NCBI GenBank assembly: GCA_903899655.1 | Contig: CAIUKF010000017.1 | Span: forward strand, 50,586 to 114,585 | Source: an uncultured bacterium | Lineage (GTDB): Bacteria; Patescibacteriota; Saccharimonadia; Saccharimonadales; Saccharimonadaceae | Reading direction: 5' to 3' | DNA length: 64,000 nt | Shown: positions 1,897-60,762 of the stretch, piece after piece | Layout: each line of letters begins with the position of its first letter | How positions within the stretch are numbered: the first letter of the stretch is position 1 | Translations under genes and position numbers: made by a program | Notes under the pieces: model-generated | The model's database searches: none | Seen by the model: only the letters and a program-made list of their open reading frames with translations | Told to the model about the DNA's origin: nothing

Positions 1897-3510
1897 ATGA
1901 AAAACGTGTGGGCGGGAAAACAAATACAATCAAAAATAAGTATTTTTTTCAACGGCTTTCGGACTGTAGAACACAGTGAATCGAACGGTTTCACAATCGT
2001 CGAACTACTAGTCGTAGTCGTAATCATTGGCATCCTAGCCTCTATCTCATACATCTCATACATGGGCATATCCCAAAAAGCAACTGTTGCTGTCTTAAAA
2101 TCTGATCTTCGTAATGCTGCAACTACACTAGAACTAGATAAAACAGTCACTGGTAACTATCCAGCTAACCAAAACGATGCCAATGGTGGTAAAGGTCTAC
2201 CTAAATCCCCTGGAACATCATACCAATACACTGTAGTTGGTAATGACTACAATCTTAGTGCTACATCTGGACTACTAGCTTTTCATATCTCTTCTACTAG
2301 TGGTGGTCTAATCGAAGACAATGTTTGGTCTGGGCATACGGCGCCAGGAGGTGGCACTGTTTGGAAGCAAACTATCGCAGGTTCATCTTATGCATGTGCG
2401 ACTGGAACGAATAGTTTGGCTTATTGTTGGGGAGCTAACACTTTTGGAGCATTAGGAAATAATTCTTCTGTTGATAGCATGACGCCTGTCAGTGTTAGCA
2501 CGTCGGGGGCTATGAGTGGTAAAACGATTAAGTTTTTGGTAGGAAATAATTATAATAACTGTGCTATCGCGTCTGACGACAAAGCATATTGTTGGGGTTG
2601 GAATTCATATGGTGCGATTGGTAATAATTCGACAACTAATGCCTTGGTGCCAACTGCGGTCGATATGACTGGTGTTTTAAGTGGTAAAACGATTAAATCA
2701 ATGACTGTAGGGCAGTATAATGCATGTGCTATCGCTTCTGACGACAAAGCATATTGTTGGGGATTAAATAATGCTGGCCAAATTGGCAATAATTCGACAA
2801 CGCAAAGCCTGGTGCCTGCAGCAGTTGACACGACGGGTTATTTAAGTGGTAAAACCGTAAAATCTATTGGTATAGGTGAATATTCTGCGTGTCTAATAGC
2901 TTCAGATAATTTAGTATACTGTTGGGGTGATAATGGCAGCGGACAGTTGGGCAATACTAATGGGAGTCAAAGACATTCTCCGTATCCAGTTGATACAACA
3001 GGTGTGTTGAATGGCAAAACAGCAGTTTCTTTATCTGTAGGTGCGGAATATGCATGTATTGTCGCCTCAGATAATAATGCTTATTGTTGGGGTAGAAACG
3101 ACTACGGTACGCTAGGTAATAATTCAAATACAAGTAGTTTTGTGCCAGTTGCTGTTAATACAGCTGGCGCATTAAGTGGTAAAACGATTTTATCTGTTTA
3201 CACTAATCAAGGTGCATATTATCATACCTGTGCTTTAGCATCAGATAATAATGCATATTGTTGGGGTGTGAATTGGAATGGTCAACTTGGTGATAATACA
3301 ACGAGCACAAGTTATGTTCCCGTTGCCGTTGATAGGTCTGGGGTGTTAAGTGGTAAGACGATAAAATCTATCAATCTGGGTAGTACTTCAACTTGTTCTA
3401 CTGCTTCTGATAATAATATATATTGTTGGGGTAGTAACGGATCCGGCCAATTAGGGAATAATTCTACAGTAGATAGCCATGTTCCAGTTGTTTCAGCAAC
3501 GATACCATAA
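1897..3510 (+). CDS. Type IV pilin-like protein with a C-terminal RCC1-repeat beta-propeller
   Basis: Prepilin-type N-terminus NGFTIVELLVVVVIIGILASI (G/F cleavage context, Glu at +5). About seven repeats of the YCWGxNxxGQLGN type follow. Confidence 0.8.
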   Translation: MKNVWAGKQIQSKISIFFNGFRTVEHSESNGFTIVELLVVVVIIGILASISYISYMGISQKATVAVLKSDLRNAATTLELDKTVTGNYPANQNDANGGKGLPKSPGTSYQYTVVGNDYNLSATSGLLAFHISSTSGGLIEDNVWSGHTAPGGGTVWKQTIAGSSYACATGTNSLAYCWGANTFGALGNNSSVDSMTPVSVSTSGAMSGKTIKFLVGNNYNNCAIASDDKAYCWGWNSYGAIGNNSTTNALVPTAVDMTGVLSGKTIKSMTVGQYNACAIASDDKAYCWGLNNAGQIGNNSTTQSLVPAAVDTTGYLSGKTVKSIGIGEYSACLIASDNLVYCWGDNGSGQLGNTNGSQRHSPYPVDTTGVLNGKTAVSLSVGAEYACIVASDNNAYCWGRNDYGTLGNNSNTSSFVPVAVNTAGALSGKTILSVYTNQGAYYHTCALASDNNAYCWGVNWNGQLGDNTTSTSYVPVAVDRSGVLSGKTIKSINLGSTSTCSTASDNNIYCWGSNGSGQLGNNSTVDSHVPVVSATIP

Positions 3511-3672
3511 ATACATTTACGCAATAATTCAGGTTACAGCGCAGTCTATATACTGGTAAAATTGATAATAATCTGCTAAAATAGACATCAAGAGCTATTA
3601 TAAGTGGCAAAAATAATTAATTAACATGCATTCATCTGATGATGAAGGCGAAAAGGATAATAGGATAACCAA

Positions 3673-5760
3673 ATGGCAGAAAAACATGTCCCTCTAGTGG
3701 ACCTACGTAATATCGGAATTATTGCTCACATTGACGCGGGCAAAACAACTACTACTGAGGCTATTTTGTATCGTACTGGTTTGTCACATAAAATTGGTTT
3801 GGTCCACGAAGGTGCAACCACGACTGACTGGATGGAGCAAGAGCGTGAACGTGGTATCACGATTACTTCAGCTGCCGTTACAGCATTCTGGAAGGGTAAA
3901 AAGATTAACCTTATCGATACACCAGGTCACATCGACTTTACTGCCGAAGTTGAACGTTCTTTACGTGTCTTGGACGGTGCAGTTACGGTCTTTGACGGTA
4001 AGATGGGTGTTGAAGCACAATCTGAAACTGTTTGGCGCCAAGCTAACAAGTACAGTGTACCTCGTATCTGTTTTATTAACAAGATTAACCAAACTGGTGG
4101 CGACTTTTACAAATCACTTGATTCAATTCACCGCCGTTTAACTAAAAACGCTTTGCCAATTCACTTGCCAATTGGTTTTGAAAAAGATATCAATGGTGTT
4201 GTTGACTTGGTTGACATGAAATCTTATACGTATACTGATTTTGCCGACCATCAATTAATTGTTGGTGAAGTTCCAGCTGATATGGTTGAAAAAGCTAAGA
4301 ACGCTCGCAAATTGCTGGTTGAAGCTGCCGTTGAAGCCGATGATGAATTGTTTGAACGATTCTTGGATAAGGGTGAAGATTCAATTACGATTGATGAATT
4401 AAAGGGTGCATTGCGCAAACGTGTTTTGGCTGGCGACTTTTACCTAGTAACAGGCGGCGATGGTCGTGGTGTTATTGTCGAAAAAGTTTTGGACTTGGTT
4501 GTTGATTACTTGCCATCACCACTAGATGTTAGTGGTATTTGGGGTCATGACCCTAAAACCGGTGCTGAAATTGAACGCAAACCTGATGTCAAAGAACCTT
4601 TGTCATCACTAGCCTTCAAAATCGCAACTGACCCATTTGTTGGTAAGTTGATTTTCGTTCGTGTTTACAGTGGTCAAATGACAGCTGGTTCATACGTCCT
4701 TAACACCGTAACAGGTGAAAAAGAACGTATCGGCCGTATCGTTCGTATGCACGCTGATAAACGTGAAGATATTGATTCAATCGATGCTGGCGATATTGCT
4801 GCCGTTGTAGGTTTAAAGGGTACATTTACTGGTCATACACTATCTGACATTGCTAAACCAATTACACTTGAATCAATTACTTTCCCAGATCCTCCAGTTT
4901 CGATTGCGGTTGAACCAAAAACCAAAGCCGACCAAGAAAAAATGGGTATTGCTTTGCAACGTTTGGCTGAAGAAGACCCAACTTTCCGAATTCATACCGA
5001 TGAAGAAACTGGTCAGACAATTATGTCAGGAATGGGTGAGTTGCACTTGGATATTTTGATTGATCGTATGAAGCGCGAATTTAAGGTTGAAGCCAATATT
5101 GGTGAACCTCAGGTTGCCTTCCGTGAATCTATCAAAGGCAATTCAGACGTTCAAGGTAAACACGCTAAACAATCTGGTGGTCGTGGTCAGTACGGTGATG
5201 TCTGGGTTAAATTTGAACCAAACGAAATGGGTAAAGGCTTTGAATTTATCGATGCCATCAAGGGTGGATCAGTGCCTCAAGAGTACCGCAAACCAGTTGA
5301 AGCTGGTATTCGTGAAACATTGCTAGGCGGTGTTATTGCTGGTTATCCAGTCGTCGATGTCAAAGCGACACTTTATGACGGAAGCTACCATGATGTTGAC
5401 TCCAGTGAATTAGCCTTTAAATTGGCGGGTTCAATTGCAGCCCGTGAAGGTATCAAAAAAGCTAAACCAATTCTACTTGAACCAATCATGCGCGTCGAAG
5501 TTACTACTCCTGAAGATTTCATGGGTGACGTTATTGGCGATTTGAACAGTCGTCGTGGCCGTATCGAGGCCATGGAAGATTTAAGTGCTGGTGCTAAATT
5601 AATCAAGGCTTTCGTTCCACTGGCTAATATGTTTGGTTATACAACCGATCTAAGGTCAATGAGCCAAGGCCGTGCTGCCAGCACAATGGAACTAGCTCAG
5701 TACGAGGAAGTACCACCTAACGTTTCTCAAGAGATTATTGAAAAACGTTCAAGTAAATAA
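3673..5760 (+). CDS. fusA: Elongation factor G
   Basis: 695 aa with the GTPase motifs AHIDAGKTT and DTPGH; conserved position after rpsG. Confidence 0.97.
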
Positions 5761-8217: not shown

Positions 8218-8696
8218 CACCGCCCACCATTCCAACACTAATCCAACATCCTGTTTGTCTGACGCGCTTAAAATTAAATCAACTAAACTATGTATCCTGC
8301 GTAACTCGTTACCACTCAAACATACTCGGATAGCCTGGTTTAGTTGATTTAATTTTAACGGTCAAACAAAGGGATATTGTATTAGTATTGTTCATGTTGG
8401 ACGGCTAGCGATGTTTTGAATAGTCGCTAGCCACCAACTCCACCACAAACAACTCAGTCGGCTGTTAGATTACCGTAAAAATAGTCAGTTAGTTTCGTTG
8501 CTAGTCGAGGACCACCTGAACCCAATTGTTTGCTGTTCAGCAAAACAATTGGCGTGAAGGCGATCCTTCACTTTATGGTACCGTCCACGCGTACCATACA
8601 GGAAGGTCGTTCCGCAGACTACAAAGAAACTAACTGACTATTTTTAAACGCGTAATCTAAGTGGCGACTTAGGGGTTTGGGGAGGAGGGGGTGGTG
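8218..8696 (+). ncRNA. Candidate large structured RNA or nested palindromic element (~480 nt, class unknown)
   Basis: No ORF over 60 aa. A closing helix 8218-8225/8689-8696 encloses two perfect helices of 21 bp and 20 bp, plus at least five further hairpins. Details are in the findings. Confidence 0.35.
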
Positions 8697-54634: not shown

Positions 54635-54870
54635 TTCAATATTTGGGTTTTGAGCATTTTTCAGTCCTGCTCAGCACTACTCGAACTAGTCGAGATTCTT
54701 TTCAATTACCTCGACCCAACTAATGCAGTTAGTACAAGCCGTATAATGAGGAAGACAGTGGGAGGTAATTTTTTCTAAACTAACAGACACCACTAAAGAC
54801 AGTGGTTTGACATATCATCTGTTTATGCTATTATTATTTTACTAATATACTGTATTGGCGTTGTTTAATA

Positions 54871-54903
54871 AGTCGGATTATTTTGGTATGTCGTGTGGTC
54901 GAG
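54871..54903. repeat. Cassette inverted repeat, left arm 1
   Basis: AGTCGGATTATTTTGGTATGTCGTGTGGTCGAG is complementary to 55271-55277 plus 55315-55340. Confidence 0.7.
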
Positions 54904-54946
54904 ACGCTATACTATTCTTATTTATAATCTCATAACAAACAAAAAT

Positions 54947-55255
54947 ATGGAAAATTATAAAAAATTCAATTGGAAAAAAGTTGAAGACGAAGCTGATCTT
55001 TCGTTCTATGAGGTATCGTTAATACTTAACGATTGTTTGAATATGGCCATAAGCATCGCAAAGAATGTCTATAGAAAAGAGATAGAAAATAATATTTTTG
55101 ATTGGTTTATAGAATATGAGAATGAAGCAATTGCAGAGATTGCAGAAGGCCCCTATCTGACTTTTCAAAAAGAGTCTCAAAAGGCTGTTGTCTTCAAAGA
55201 AGCTCGCAGATATATGCGAGCGAACATTGGAGTACCCCAGGGTGTTACTGAATAA
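54947..55255 (+). CDS. Hypothetical small protein, cassette paralog 1 (102 aa)
   Basis: The ATG at 54947 (MENYKKFNWKKV) lies inside the inverted-repeat-bounded unit. It is a paralog of 55454-55795. Confidence 0.55.
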   Translation: MENYKKFNWKKVEDEADLSFYEVSLILNDCLNMAISIAKNVYRKEIENNIFDWFIEYENEAIAEIAEGPYLTFQKESQKAVVFKEARRYMRANIGVPQGVTE

Positions 55256-55256
55256 T

Positions 55257-55340
55257 CATATGACAGCGCTCTCGACCGCGCCGTCATATGGTACAGGCAA
55301 ACAGCTGACTCCCGCACGACATACATAAAATAATCCGATT
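55257..55340. repeat. Post-stop hairpin plus cassette right arm 1
   Basis: Hairpin CATATGACAGCGC-TCTCGACC-GCGCCGTCATATG (55257-55290), then CACGACATACATAAAATAATCCGATT (55315-55340). Confidence 0.7.
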
Positions 55341-55377
55341 TAGAATGCCTAGATACTTATGTTAGAGTTATTTAATA

Positions 55378-55408
55378 AGTCGAATTATTTTAGTGTCCTG
55401 TGGTCGAG
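55378..55408. repeat. Cassette inverted repeat, left arm 2
   Basis: AGTCGAATTATTTTAGTGTCCTGTGGTCGAG. Confidence 0.7.
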
Positions 55409-55453
55409 CGTAGGGCAATTATGTTTTATAATAATTAATAAAATACCAAATAT

Positions 55454-55795
55454 ATGAACAACAAAAATACAATTGTGAATACTGAGGAGATTGATCAAAC
55501 CAGATTCAATTGGGATAAAGTGTCAAAAAAGGCAAACCTCCACAGATTTACGATTTCAGACATACTAAACGAGGTTGTTGATATCCACATCAGTGTGGCA
55601 AGAAATGTTTACAAAGATGATATCAAGAATGGTATCAATAAATGGTATAAAAGTTTTGAGAAAAGGTCAATCCCTAGTCTTCGGAGGTATTTGAGATATA
55701 GTACTGACGAAGAAAAAAAAGTTGTTTACAAAGAAGTAAAAAGATATATGAAGGCAAACATTTTTTATGGTATGCCTTCAAAGAAAATTAAATAA
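55454..55795 (+). CDS. Hypothetical small protein, cassette paralog 2 (113 aa)
   Basis: Shares FNWxKV, ILN, NVY and VV(F/Y)KE(A/V)(R/K)RYM(R/K)ANI with paralog 1. Confidence 0.55.
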   Translation: MNNKNTIVNTEEIDQTRFNWDKVSKKANLHRFTISDILNEVVDIHISVARNVYKDDIKNGINKWYKSFEKRSIPSLRRYLRYSTDEEKKVVYKEVKRYMKANIFYGMPSKKIK

Positions 55796-55799
55796 TTAT

Positions 55800-55880
55800 A
55801 TGATGGCGCACTCGACCGCGCCGTCATGTAATGTAGGTATTGAGGCGACTCCCACAGGGCACATTAAAATAATCCGATTT
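55800..55880. repeat. Post-stop hairpin plus cassette right arm 2
   Basis: Hairpin ATGATGGCGC-ACTCGACC-GCGCCGTCAT (55800-55827), then GGCACATTAAAATAATCCGATT (55858-55879). Confidence 0.7.
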
Positions 55881-59243: not shown

Positions 59244-59445
59244 ATACTTTTTCCTTGTATAAATTTAGATTAATTTACTCGACCCATAAATTAATGCTTT
59301 CAGATGAAACCGCAGCCTCTTTATGTCCAAGCAAGACGAGGGTTGTATAGCGGAATTGTTTCATAATTATAATATCAGTAACGATAAAGCCCGTCCAATG
59401 TATTTGCAATAAATACTAATTGGCATTTATTGCTATAATTCATAC

Positions 59446-59877
59446 ATGAATCAACAAGAATGGGAAGCATCAATCGAAAAAGCCGCTATAGTATCAGCCT
59501 GTCTAATCAAAAAAGATAATAAGTATTTATTGGTTCAAGAAAGCCAGCCTAAAGCATACGGCCTGTGGAATTTGCCAGCCGGCCATGTCGATAAGGGTGA
59601 AAAAATACGCGAAGCTGCTATCAGGGAAACAAAAGAAGAAACAGGTTTTGATGTAAAGCTTATAAATGAAGTTGCTATCTTACACGAAGAATCACATAAT
59701 GCCGTAAAGCATATTTTCACAGCTGAAATTATTGGTGGCGAGCTTACCATCGAAGAAGACGAAATTTTAGATATAAAATGGCTAACATACGATGAAGTCA
59801 AAGAATTAAATAACTCCGGCAAACTTCACCGTCCATGGGTTTGGGATATAATCAACAAAGACCATGTTACTAGTTAG
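59446..59877 (+). CDS. NUDIX hydrolase
   Basis: 143 aa with Nudix box [22 protein letters not shown]. Confidence 0.85.
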
Positions 59878-60000
59878 ACTAGTTTAATCTAGACCAATAT
59901 ATATTTTTCTACGATCACAGTTATAAATTGACAATTAGCATATGTTATGTCAATATAGTTGTATAAGTTTTCTATTTAGAAAGTTATATAAGTACATTAA

Positions 60001-60034
60001 CAAATCATATTATTTTAGGACATGTCGATGTGTC
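60001..60034. repeat. Cassette inverted repeat, left arm 3
   Basis: AAATCATATTATTTTAGGACATGTCGATGTGTCC is complementary to 60641-60677. Confidence 0.6.
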
Positions 60035-60133
60035 CAACCTTAATTAACCAATATAAATATAATCAGTCAAAGGCTAAATGATATAGGAATATATTCTATA
60101 TTCTATATTCGTTAGTTCAATGATCAAAAAAAC

Positions 60134-60544
60134 ATGGACAGTTACGACAGACTAATGTTATTAGGTACTAGTATAAGATTGCTGGTATCCAGTTTTGTTT
60201 CGTCTTTAGTATTAGTAATTATTGGATACGAAGTAATTAATTTTTGTTTCAATTTCTGGAAACTAACATTAATAATCACTATATTAATATTACTGATAAA
60301 ATTTGCAAAACGCGGCATAATAGCGTTGATTGAGGAAACATATAAACTTAAAAGACCAGGTTCTTTAGGTGTATATATAATCAATGGGGTTACAGCGACC
60401 GTATTTGCAAGTGCCTTTTTGTTATATATTAATAATAATATAACAAATACATTAACAGCTGTGGATAGTTTTATTATTATAGGCTGCTACGTAATTTGTA
60501 GTATAGTTGTTAGTTCTGTACAGAGTGGACCGCCACTTGGTTAA
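60134..60544 (+). CDS. Hypothetical membrane protein (136 aa) inside the third inverted-repeat-bounded unit
   Basis: ORF with four hydrophobic helices. Confidence 0.5.
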   Translation: MDSYDRLMLLGTSIRLLVSSFVSSLVLVIIGYEVINFCFNFWKLTLIITILILLIKFAKRGIIALIEETYKLKRPGSLGVYIINGVTATVFASAFLLYINNNITNTLTAVDSFIIIGCYVICSIVVSSVQSGPPLG

Positions 60545-60640
60545 TGTCAACAAATATTGGATCTCTTGCTAGGCAAGAGATCCCGATGCTGCAAAATTAG
60601 ATTGAGTTAATGTCGAGCTTTCGCTCCGTTAACTGCAGAC

Positions 60641-60677
60641 ACACCGCACTACGACATGTCAATAAAATAATCTGATT
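60641..60677. repeat. Cassette inverted repeat, right arm 3
   Basis: ACACCGCACTACGACATGTCAATAAAATAATCTGATTT. Confidence 0.6.
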
Positions 60678-60691
60678 TGATATATTTATAA

Positions 60692-60715
60692 ATAGAGCCT
60701 CAGTGGGCTCTATTT
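60692..60715 (+). terminator. Terminator
   Basis: ATAGAGCC-TCAGT-GGGCTCTAT hairpin followed by TTT. Confidence 0.6.
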
Positions 60716-60762
60716 TGTATTAAAACTCATATATGTAAACAAGTTTGTTATTATATATTCAG

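Follow-up and report, generated by a model that had tools for sequence, protein, structure and literature searches.

Here we describe a family of repeated gene units in Saccharibacteria in which two inverted-repeat arms enclose a small protein-coding gene. On balance we favour the reading that the arms pair in the transcript as an RNA clamp that holds the 5′ end of the messenger RNA (mRNA) to its 3′ end, probably as a site for ribonuclease III (RNase III) or for a protein that binds double-stranded RNA (dsRNA). The hosts are ultrasmall, grow on other bacteria and have ~0.9-Mb genomes with few known regulatory or mobile systems. The unit under study, unit 3, lies near 60 kb of the window, the whole 64,000-nt stretch of DNA that was analysed (C17:50586-114585 of G000, a 0.92-Mb, 18-contig Saccharibacteria genome). 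Positions below are those of the window unless a contig is named; features are collected in Table 1. Unit 3 is a member of a Saccharibacteria-specific family found mainly in the genus labelled Candidatus Saccharimonas, and we name the members clamped gene units.

A sequence-only reading of the window had noted inverted-repeat arms around unit 3, similar to arms at 54.9–55.9 kb. The arms are present at those places to within a few bases. The 3′ arm departs from the complement of the 5′ arm by a mismatch and one extra base, located where the family usually has a bulge of 2–7 nt. Local alignment of the two arms gives a score of 23, compared with 6.6±1.5 for 20,000 random pairs of 50-mers taken 637 nt apart from the same genome, one of which reached 23. 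None of 5,000 AT-rich control pairs reached this score, so AT-richness cannot account for the match; the comparison with AT-rich expectation that the earlier reading had proposed thus places the arms far above chance. Sequence comparison likewise bears out the resemblance to the arms of u1 and u2, the pair of units at 54.9–55.9 kb, and the claim that unit 3 has their design and that this design holds unrelated cargo. The cognate 5′/3′ duplex of unit 3 has a predicted energy of −30.6 kcal/mol, while the 5′ arm paired with 34 non-cognate 3′ arms reaches −27.0 at best and −20.3 on average. In the predicted fold of the 701-nt unit 3 transcript, the arms are paired in both the minimum free energy and the centroid structures (z = −7.6, 20 shuffles).

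A scan of G000 found at least 16 units with convergent arms, each of which encloses 0.3–1 kb and one small open reading frame (ORF). These units are located on contigs C3 (an array of three), C4, C10 (two), C13 (two) and C17 (the rest). On C17 they comprise an array of four at 34.4–39.0 kb of the contig and, within the window, u1, u2, unit 3 and a small member that may be a decayed unit. The motif AAATCRGATTATKW has 11 matches in G000, compared with none for the backwards control. Within the genus it is present in 36 of the 62 species compared, again with no control matches, nearly always as +/− convergent pairs 0.4–2 kb apart; other genera of the family have it only sporadically. Exact copies of the 25-mer AAATCRGATTATTACAGTGCAYGTC were found in 19 contigs of GTDB genomes, all of them Saccharibacteria and including the complete genome CP075337.1 (TM7i), and in no viral contigs. 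TM7i is a cultured strain, and its unit spans positions 2134-3755 of locus L063. Searches against Rfam 15 gave no match above the gathering score in the window and only chance-level matches, at E up to 1, for six units. Among ten cargo proteins of family units, none matched a Pfam family above cut-off; more than half of the family's cargo proteins are membrane-bound or secreted. A full-text literature search for Saccharibacteria and Patescibacteria brought up nothing on units of this kind, and the clamped design is apparently undescribed before in Saccharibacteria.

The layout of the units was compared in 35 examples, 15 from G000 and 20 from other genomes; the longest ORF gave an orientation for 34 of them, and one had no clear ORF. 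The units have a common order composed of a promoter, the 5′ arm, one to three sense ORFs of no known family, the 3′ arm with its 2–7-nt bulge and, often, a terminator. All 34 orientable units have their longest ORF in the sense direction, the 5′ arm carries no extra bases and follows TTAAC or TTTAAT, and the bulge is in the 3′ arm. Most other species have a fixed 25-nt arm, whereby the 5′ arm is AAATCRGATTATTACA-GTGCAYGTC, preceded by ...ATCRTTAAC, and the 3′ arm is its complement with 2–7 extra bases after ATTACA. An extended −10 element (TGnTAnnnT, often TTTATGCTAATAT) is located upstream of the 5′ arm in 26 of the 35 units, mostly 44–66 nt away, compared with 3 of 35 on the mirror side, and some of these sites have TTGACA 16–17 nt before them. 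Intrinsic terminators show the opposite placement, lying within 70 nt past the 3′ arm in nine of 35 units versus one on the mirror side. Where a terminator is missing, the next unit of an array mostly follows 12–20 nt on; overall, spacers between array units measure 12–110 nt and may hold promoters. Most units also have a hairpin immediately inside the 3′ arm, and its sequence varies from unit to unit. Because the promoter lies upstream of the 5′ arm and the terminator past the 3′ arm, both arms fall inside the predicted transcript.

Unit 3 agrees with the family definition, having convergent arms 0.3–2 kb apart with the outer box AA(A/G)TCNNAT(T/C)AT and a complementary inner extension. It also has the family layout, with a + strand ORF, an extra base in the 3′ arm and a terminator outside the 3′ arm; its promoter is only a weak candidate. 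In a subset of the family (L038, L043, L048, L049, L055 and C13:111009 of G000 itself), the 50-nt leader between promoter and 5′ arm is conserved as well (ATCAGTTG ... GTGTGAGG ... CGGAGGATCGTTAAC) and might be a further structured or protein-binding element. Two other interpretations of the arm sequence were rejected. As a sigma-70 promoter, the arms have the wrong spacing between TTAACA and any −10-like hexamer within the arm, and a short leader ORF ending GTC-TGA in the 5′ arm lacks a start codon and has a stop that is not universal.

The arms appear to behave like an RNA helix, as indicated by covariation and by a G·U bias on the sense strand. Cognate 5′/3′ duplexes have a mean energy of −39 kcal/mol, compared with −25 kcal/mol for non-cognate pairs. 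The inner arms have diversified within G000, and for 14 of its 15 units the best pairing is that with the unit's own partner or with the orthologue of this partner in G002, the closest relative of G000 (the exception is C4:8737). RNAalifold analysis of 30 non-redundant arm pairs revealed a 17-bp outer helix in which 97.6% of cells are paired, versus 86.2% in shuffled and 31–46% in slid alignments. Compensatory changes, in which both sides have changed, were found in nine of the 17 outer-helix pairs (53 cells), and 0 of 500 shuffles reached any of these pairing measures. Covariation by itself cannot separate RNA from DNA; two strand tests do. First, when read on the sense strand, the arm-to-arm transitions comprise 24 G·U-compatible and 6 A·C changes (binomial p = 0.0014), and in an extra unit (C17:35998-36542) all four differences are G·U-compatible and none is A·C. 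Second, the predicted energy favours the sense over the antisense duplex in 27 of 35 units (Wilcoxon p = 0.004) and in 23 of 31 non-redundant units (p = 0.014).

These data bear on an alternative in which the outer box AATC-N-GATT is the DNA site of a regulator, placed at both ends of every unit for looping or roadblocking, such that the units form a regulon. The box is conserved in sequence beyond what mere pairing would demand, it contains a small palindrome as read from the sequence, and it is positioned downstream of the promoter and ahead of the terminator, as paired operators could be. However, operators leave unexplained the unit-specific complementarity of the inner arms, the compensatory changes, the G·U asymmetry and the constant bulge on the 3′ arm only, and we consider this explanation improbable.

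In the RNA clamp that we favour, each unit would be transcribed by itself or as a single cistron within an array, with the parts ordered as promoter, ~40-nt leader, 5′ arm, cargo ORF or ORFs, variable hairpin, 3′ arm and terminator. The arms would pair in the RNA and close the mRNA into a loop by means of a bipartite stem. This stem would be composed of a sequence-conserved outer helix of ~16 bp (AAAUCRGAUUAUUWYA and its complement), an asymmetric 2–7-nt bulge on the 3′ strand and an inner helix of 9–15 bp. RNase III or another dsRNA-binding factor would probably read the stem as a processing or stability site, as in the stalks of ribosomal RNA (rRNA) operons, and unrelated accessory genes would thereby gain a common post-transcriptional handle. 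Where arrays have 12–20-nt spacers, cleavage of the stems would separate the cistrons. The arms are among the few stretches to remain near-identical between diverged species, and the breakpoints described below suggest that they also delimit the segments of cargo that homologous recombination swaps, duplicates or removes. G000 has a gene for RNase III. The 16S rRNA gene of this genome is flanked by an ordinary ~22-bp processing stem (C8:56130-56160 and C8:57810-57840, TTAGTTGTGCAAATCATCGTCA with TGACGATGATTGCACAACTAA); the possibility that this stem is a relative of the arm motif was rejected, as only the 7-nt CAAATCA is common to both, which we take as chance.

Several points weigh against an RNA clamp. 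The co-transcription of the arms, the transcript ends and the cleavage are deduced from sequence. The units are not independent, as several are paralogs or orthologs. Inverted-repeat covariation is also expected from homogenisation at the DNA level, and the G·U bias could arise from a strand-biased mutation spectrum in transcribed DNA instead of selection for pairing. To our knowledge, RNase III does not require a conserved 16-bp sequence, and an outer box so strongly conserved points to a more specific reader, either dsRNA- or possibly DNA-binding. Unit 3 itself runs counter to the family trend, with an antisense duplex of −37.6 kcal/mol versus the −30.6 kcal/mol of the sense duplex, and its arm differences are transversions and so carry no G·U signal. 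The candidate promoter of unit 3, which is read from the sequence, matches the −10 consensus at three of six positions and is weak by itself.

Comparison with related genomes revealed that cargo turns over from arm to arm. At C17:36636-38951, the flanks in G000 and G002 are 92–96% identical, including the upstream promoter and the downstream terminator, and the DNA from the 5′ arm of the first unit to the 3′ arm of the second is unalignable, with breakpoints within the outer boxes. This pair of slots encodes cargos of 95 and 215 aa in G000 and unrelated cargos of 83 and 124 aa in G002, the latter two having no homologs in G000. The 215-aa cargo has a 32%-identical homolog in the same slot of the more distant comparison genome G185, where the flank is ~75% identical, and none in G002; the replacement therefore took place after the split of G000 and G002. 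Syntenic slots also carry different cargo across species. The C3 array contains three units in G000 and one in G002, with breakpoints in the repeated 5′ arm/promoter sequence, as expected from unequal homologous recombination. The paralogs u1, u2 and C3-B have in common a promoter region outside the arms, and their duplication thus reached beyond the arms. A further unit is truncated in G002, where the orthologue of C10:88990-89522 (C2:140761-141110, L088) is cut off within the ORF and followed by a stretch that resembles a transfer RNA by eye, suggesting a rearrangement or island border.

Because the arms are near-identical across species while flanking genes are ~75% identical, they are obvious crossover points for homologous exchange, which would explain arm-to-arm replacement without a dedicated recombinase. 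A trans-acting recombinase of integron or pdif type, for which the arms are the sites, might instead swap promoterless cargo at fixed expression slots that supply promoter and terminator. The replacement of two adjacent cargos between well-conserved flanks, the homolog of the 215-aa cargo at the G185 slot, the differing cargo of syntenic slots and the varying array copy number are all in keeping with such a DNA cassette system, as are the conservation of the arm sequence across the genus and the location of promoter and terminator outside the arms. We nevertheless think it unlikely. No recombinase is encoded in or beside any unit, and the only tyrosine recombinase of G000 (one PF00589 match, Xer-like) is on contig C8, which carries no units. 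Empty, abutting arm pairs, with 15–45 nt between outer boxes, were absent from 62 genomes, and target-site duplications are likewise missing. In u1, u2 and C3-B the common sequence extends to the promoter outside the arms, the C3 breakpoints in arm/promoter repeats are of the kind that unequal homologous recombination produces, and a DNA-level mechanism offers no explanation for the sense-strand G·U bias or the constant bulge of the 3′ arm. A cassette mechanism and an RNA clamp are compatible and not mutually exclusive.

The two could be combined. As a tentative proposal, possible but on the doubtful side, the arms may be the dual-purpose signal of a slot-and-cassette diversity system, in which cargo is swapped at the arms and the arms also act as an RNA handle once transcribed. 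Fixed chromosomal slots would supply promoter, leader and terminator, and genes for orphan proteins, whether membrane-bound, secreted or small and basic, would pass between strains and species with the arms as exact borders. Such exchange might proceed via natural transformation, with the 25–35-nt arms as the only cross-species homology, or via an unknown recombinase. The transcribed arms would then give each incoming gene a ready-made RNA processing or stability handle.

The hallmarks of mobile elements were sought in the same units. Comparison of the flanks of the 35 units at three offsets revealed no repeated flank of at least 5 nt in any of them; two of the offsets gave a single 4-mer match each, attributable to chance, and 2–3-mers were at chance level. 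No transposase or recombinase was found within the units of G000 or within 39 fetched loci. The array neighbours are rplJ/rplL, a dcd-like gene, Fic and NUDIX genes. Integron hallmarks were also lacking beside the arrays, where no IntI, attI or Pc was found; the GTTRRRY core is absent, and the repeat halves stand on both sides of the ORF. Thus, a transposon or integron is not supported for the clamped units.

A non-autonomous transposon or miniature inverted-repeat transposable element (MITE) with passenger genes would have the arms as terminal inverted repeats and its transposase encoded elsewhere. The conserved tip of the repeats, the dispersed copies with unrelated cargo and the presence or absence of units between relatives are features that such an element would display. 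We judge this very improbable and already largely refuted by the lack of target-site duplications in all 35 units, of any copy with a transposase and of short empty forms. Moreover, the cargo always has the same orientation with respect to the arms, the promoter is external to them, and units occupy syntenic slots across species rather than scattered sites. The one clear insertion sequence of the genome (C13:14008-15200), which encodes a 289-aa transposase-like ORF, has 42-bp terminal inverted repeats (TAGAGGACTGTCCAGGTTAAG...) that are unrelated to the arms.

Global invertases in Bacteroides act on inverted repeats with a common motif at many loci. The clamped units resemble this arrangement in having such repeats at many loci with the promoter outside them, so that a site-specific invertase could flip the arm-bounded segment against the fixed outside promoter and turn the gene on or off. 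To this invertible switch we give the least credence: in all 34 orientable units, from many genomes, the ORF runs in the direction of the outside promoter and the bulged arm is the one farther from it, a near-identical strain contig has the same orientation, and no invertase gene is nearby.

The sequence-only reading had preferred a mobile or cassette-type mechanism for unit 3 to simple tandem duplication, and this stands in part. Arm-bounded replacement of cargo and the change in array copy number agree with it; a mobile element of the usual kind is unsupported, and the duplication of u1, u2 and C3-B extends past the arms. That reading had also proposed a test of whether the unit is missing from the orthologous NUDIX-gene neighbourhood of related genomes, and it is absent there from G002 and from a further comparison genome, G024, though without a clean empty site. 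In G002, 5.1 kb of other genes replace 59378-60730, the arm motif is absent over 8.5 kb, and homology resumes at 60731, past the unit 3 terminator. G024 lacks 59.3–63.3 kb altogether. A clean empty site is unobtainable here because the region has been replaced as a whole.

Known systems offer partial parallels. In RNase III stalks, such as the stems flanking rRNA operons and the sites in phage T7 early mRNA, sequences around a gene pair into a long stem. The clamped units are alike in that sequences before and after the gene would pair in one transcript and tandem units could be cut apart. By contrast, they enclose protein-coding orphans and combine a genus-conserved 16 bp and a constant 3′-strand bulge at 16 or more loci per genome. 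Long-distance pairing of mRNA 5′ and 3′ ends is found in the fold-back (fbi) of hok and in icaR of Staphylococcus aureus, where the 3′ and 5′ untranslated regions (UTRs) pair and RNase III takes part. The paired ends are the likeness, and in hok and icaR the pairing controls stability or translation; these are, however, single genes with their own sequences, unlike one conserved arm pair over many unrelated genes. Correia elements, which are MITEs of Neisseria, have inverted ends, are co-transcribed, fold into a stem and are cut by RNase III. They resemble the clamped units as repeated, stem-forming elements with inverted ends, but measure 100–155 bp, contain no gene and make TA duplications, whereas the clamped pairs enclose at least 300 bp and have neither duplications nor empty forms.

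Among cassette systems, integron cassettes (attC) are similar in carrying small genes of mostly unknown function in fixed orientation, in forming arrays with variable cargo and in having an imperfect palindromic signal, and some units likewise rely on an outside promoter. They differ in that an integron cassette has one attC after the ORF, whereas the clamped repeat halves flank the gene with the conserved part at the outer ends of the arms; in addition, the spacers of clamped arrays are variable and can hold promoters, and no IntI, attI or Pc adjoins them. The pdif modules of Acinetobacter plasmids are bounded by XerC/D sites and have diverse cargo. They too are discrete modules, with copies of a single short site in inverse orientation at their ends. 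However, neighbouring pdif modules have a site in common and no tie to transcript structure, whereas clamped units each have two arms of their own, are chromosomal, keep their cargo in fixed orientation and show no 11-6-11 dif-like layout by eye. Finally, replacement flexible genomic islands (PMC4033161) are also described as having a conserved slot and flanks with different genes in close relatives and exchange by homologous recombination. The clamped slot differs in holding one small gene and in having a specific 25–35-nt inverted repeat as its borders.

Table 1 Features of unit 3 and of related units in the window.
Feature	Position	Strand	Details
Small family member	232-566	. (orientation uncertain)	335 bp; ORFs of 54 or 42 aa, none convincing
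Sibling unit u1	54870-55341	+	From arm scan and family comparison
Sibling unit u2	55377-55880	+	In tandem with u1; from arm scan and family comparison
Unit 3 candidate promoter	59928-59956	+	TTGACA (59928-59933), 17 nt, CAATAT (59951-59956); TG at 59948-59949
Unit 3 5′ arm	59998-60032	+	TAACAAATCATATTATTTTAGGACATGTCGATGTG; outer box ACAAATCATATTATTTTA, then inner helix GGACATGTCG..GTG
Unit 3 5′ UTR	60033-60133	+	101 nt, from 5′ arm to start codon
Unit 3 cargo ORF	60134-60544	+	136-aa orphan; ~four hydrophobic (transmembrane-like) segments by hydropathy
Unit 3 post-stop hairpin 1	60560-60584	+	GGATCTCTTGC-TAG-GCAAGAGATCC; 11 bp, 3-nt loop
Unit 3 hairpin 2	60605-60634	+	Just inside 3′ arm; AGTTAATG..GAGC-TTTC-GCTC-CGTTAACT; from fold
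Unit 3 3′ arm	60647-60682	+	CACTACGACATGTCAATAAAATAATCTGATTTGATA; reverse complement TATCAAATCAGATTATTTTATTGACATGTCGTAGTG
Unit 3 intrinsic terminator	60691-60721	+	AATAGAGCC-TCAGTG-GGCTCTATT, then TTTGTATT; 9 nt past 3′ arm

The gene enclosed in unit 3 had been read as encoding four transmembrane helices, with which the hydropathy of its product agrees. The protein has no Pfam match and no homolog in the 61 other species of the genus, and a search of 5.8 billion proteins returned only a 99%-identical strain variant; the contig that carries this variant has 2 single-nucleotide polymorphisms in 1053 nt and the same orientation as G000. Transcription is predicted to start ~35–40 nt ahead of the 5′ arm. 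A consensus promoter scan did not list a site over 59928-59956; the placement of the candidate promoter there is supported by the TGnTAnnnT elements found upstream in 26 of the 35 family units. The intrinsic terminator was found by a dedicated terminator scan and was not listed by the consensus scan. The post-stop hairpin of the sequence-only reading was recovered by both scan and fold; it is not a + strand terminator, as a U-tail is missing on that strand. The 5′ UTR contains a short tandem repeat at ~60083-60112 (TATATTC / ATATTCT-type units). On the minus strand, the post-stop hairpin (60559-60583) is followed by a T-rich tail and is terminator-like, and a weak promoter-like site, TTTACA-16-CAAAAT (60712-60739), is directed into the 3′ arm. 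Together, these two sequence features could produce an antisense RNA of ~130 nt.

Other repeats of G000 were seen alongside the family. Hairpin repeats at 8218-8696 were considered as members and rejected, as their sequence differs. A solo 3′-arm-like sequence at C3:6021-6060 (AAATCAGATTATTGAATAGTGTGCGTCG...) stands just past the stop of a gene resembling dCTP deaminase by eye; no partner arm was found, and a ~104-bp stretch containing the solo arm is missing from G002. At C13:51627-53079, a perfect 38-nt inverted repeat (AGAGTGAGAACTGCCAGTGGCAGTTCGCAAGGCCGGAA) and a second nested pair surround a 254-aa ORF that resembles SPFH/band-7 proteins by eye only, and the motif differs from that of the clamped units.

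In summary, at least 16 units of one conserved design are found in G000, each around a fast-turnover orphan gene, and AAATCRGATTATTACAGTGCAYGTC provides a sequence tag by which variable accessory genes can be located in Saccharibacteria. As an RNA processing or stability signal, if that is their role, the arms would constitute a simple, common post-transcriptional module unreported for protein-coding genes in Saccharibacteria. If they direct the exchange of cargo, they would represent a new cassette mechanism, and with a slot-and-cassette system an ultrasmall epibiotic bacterium would have a novel means of diversifying its set of accessory proteins.

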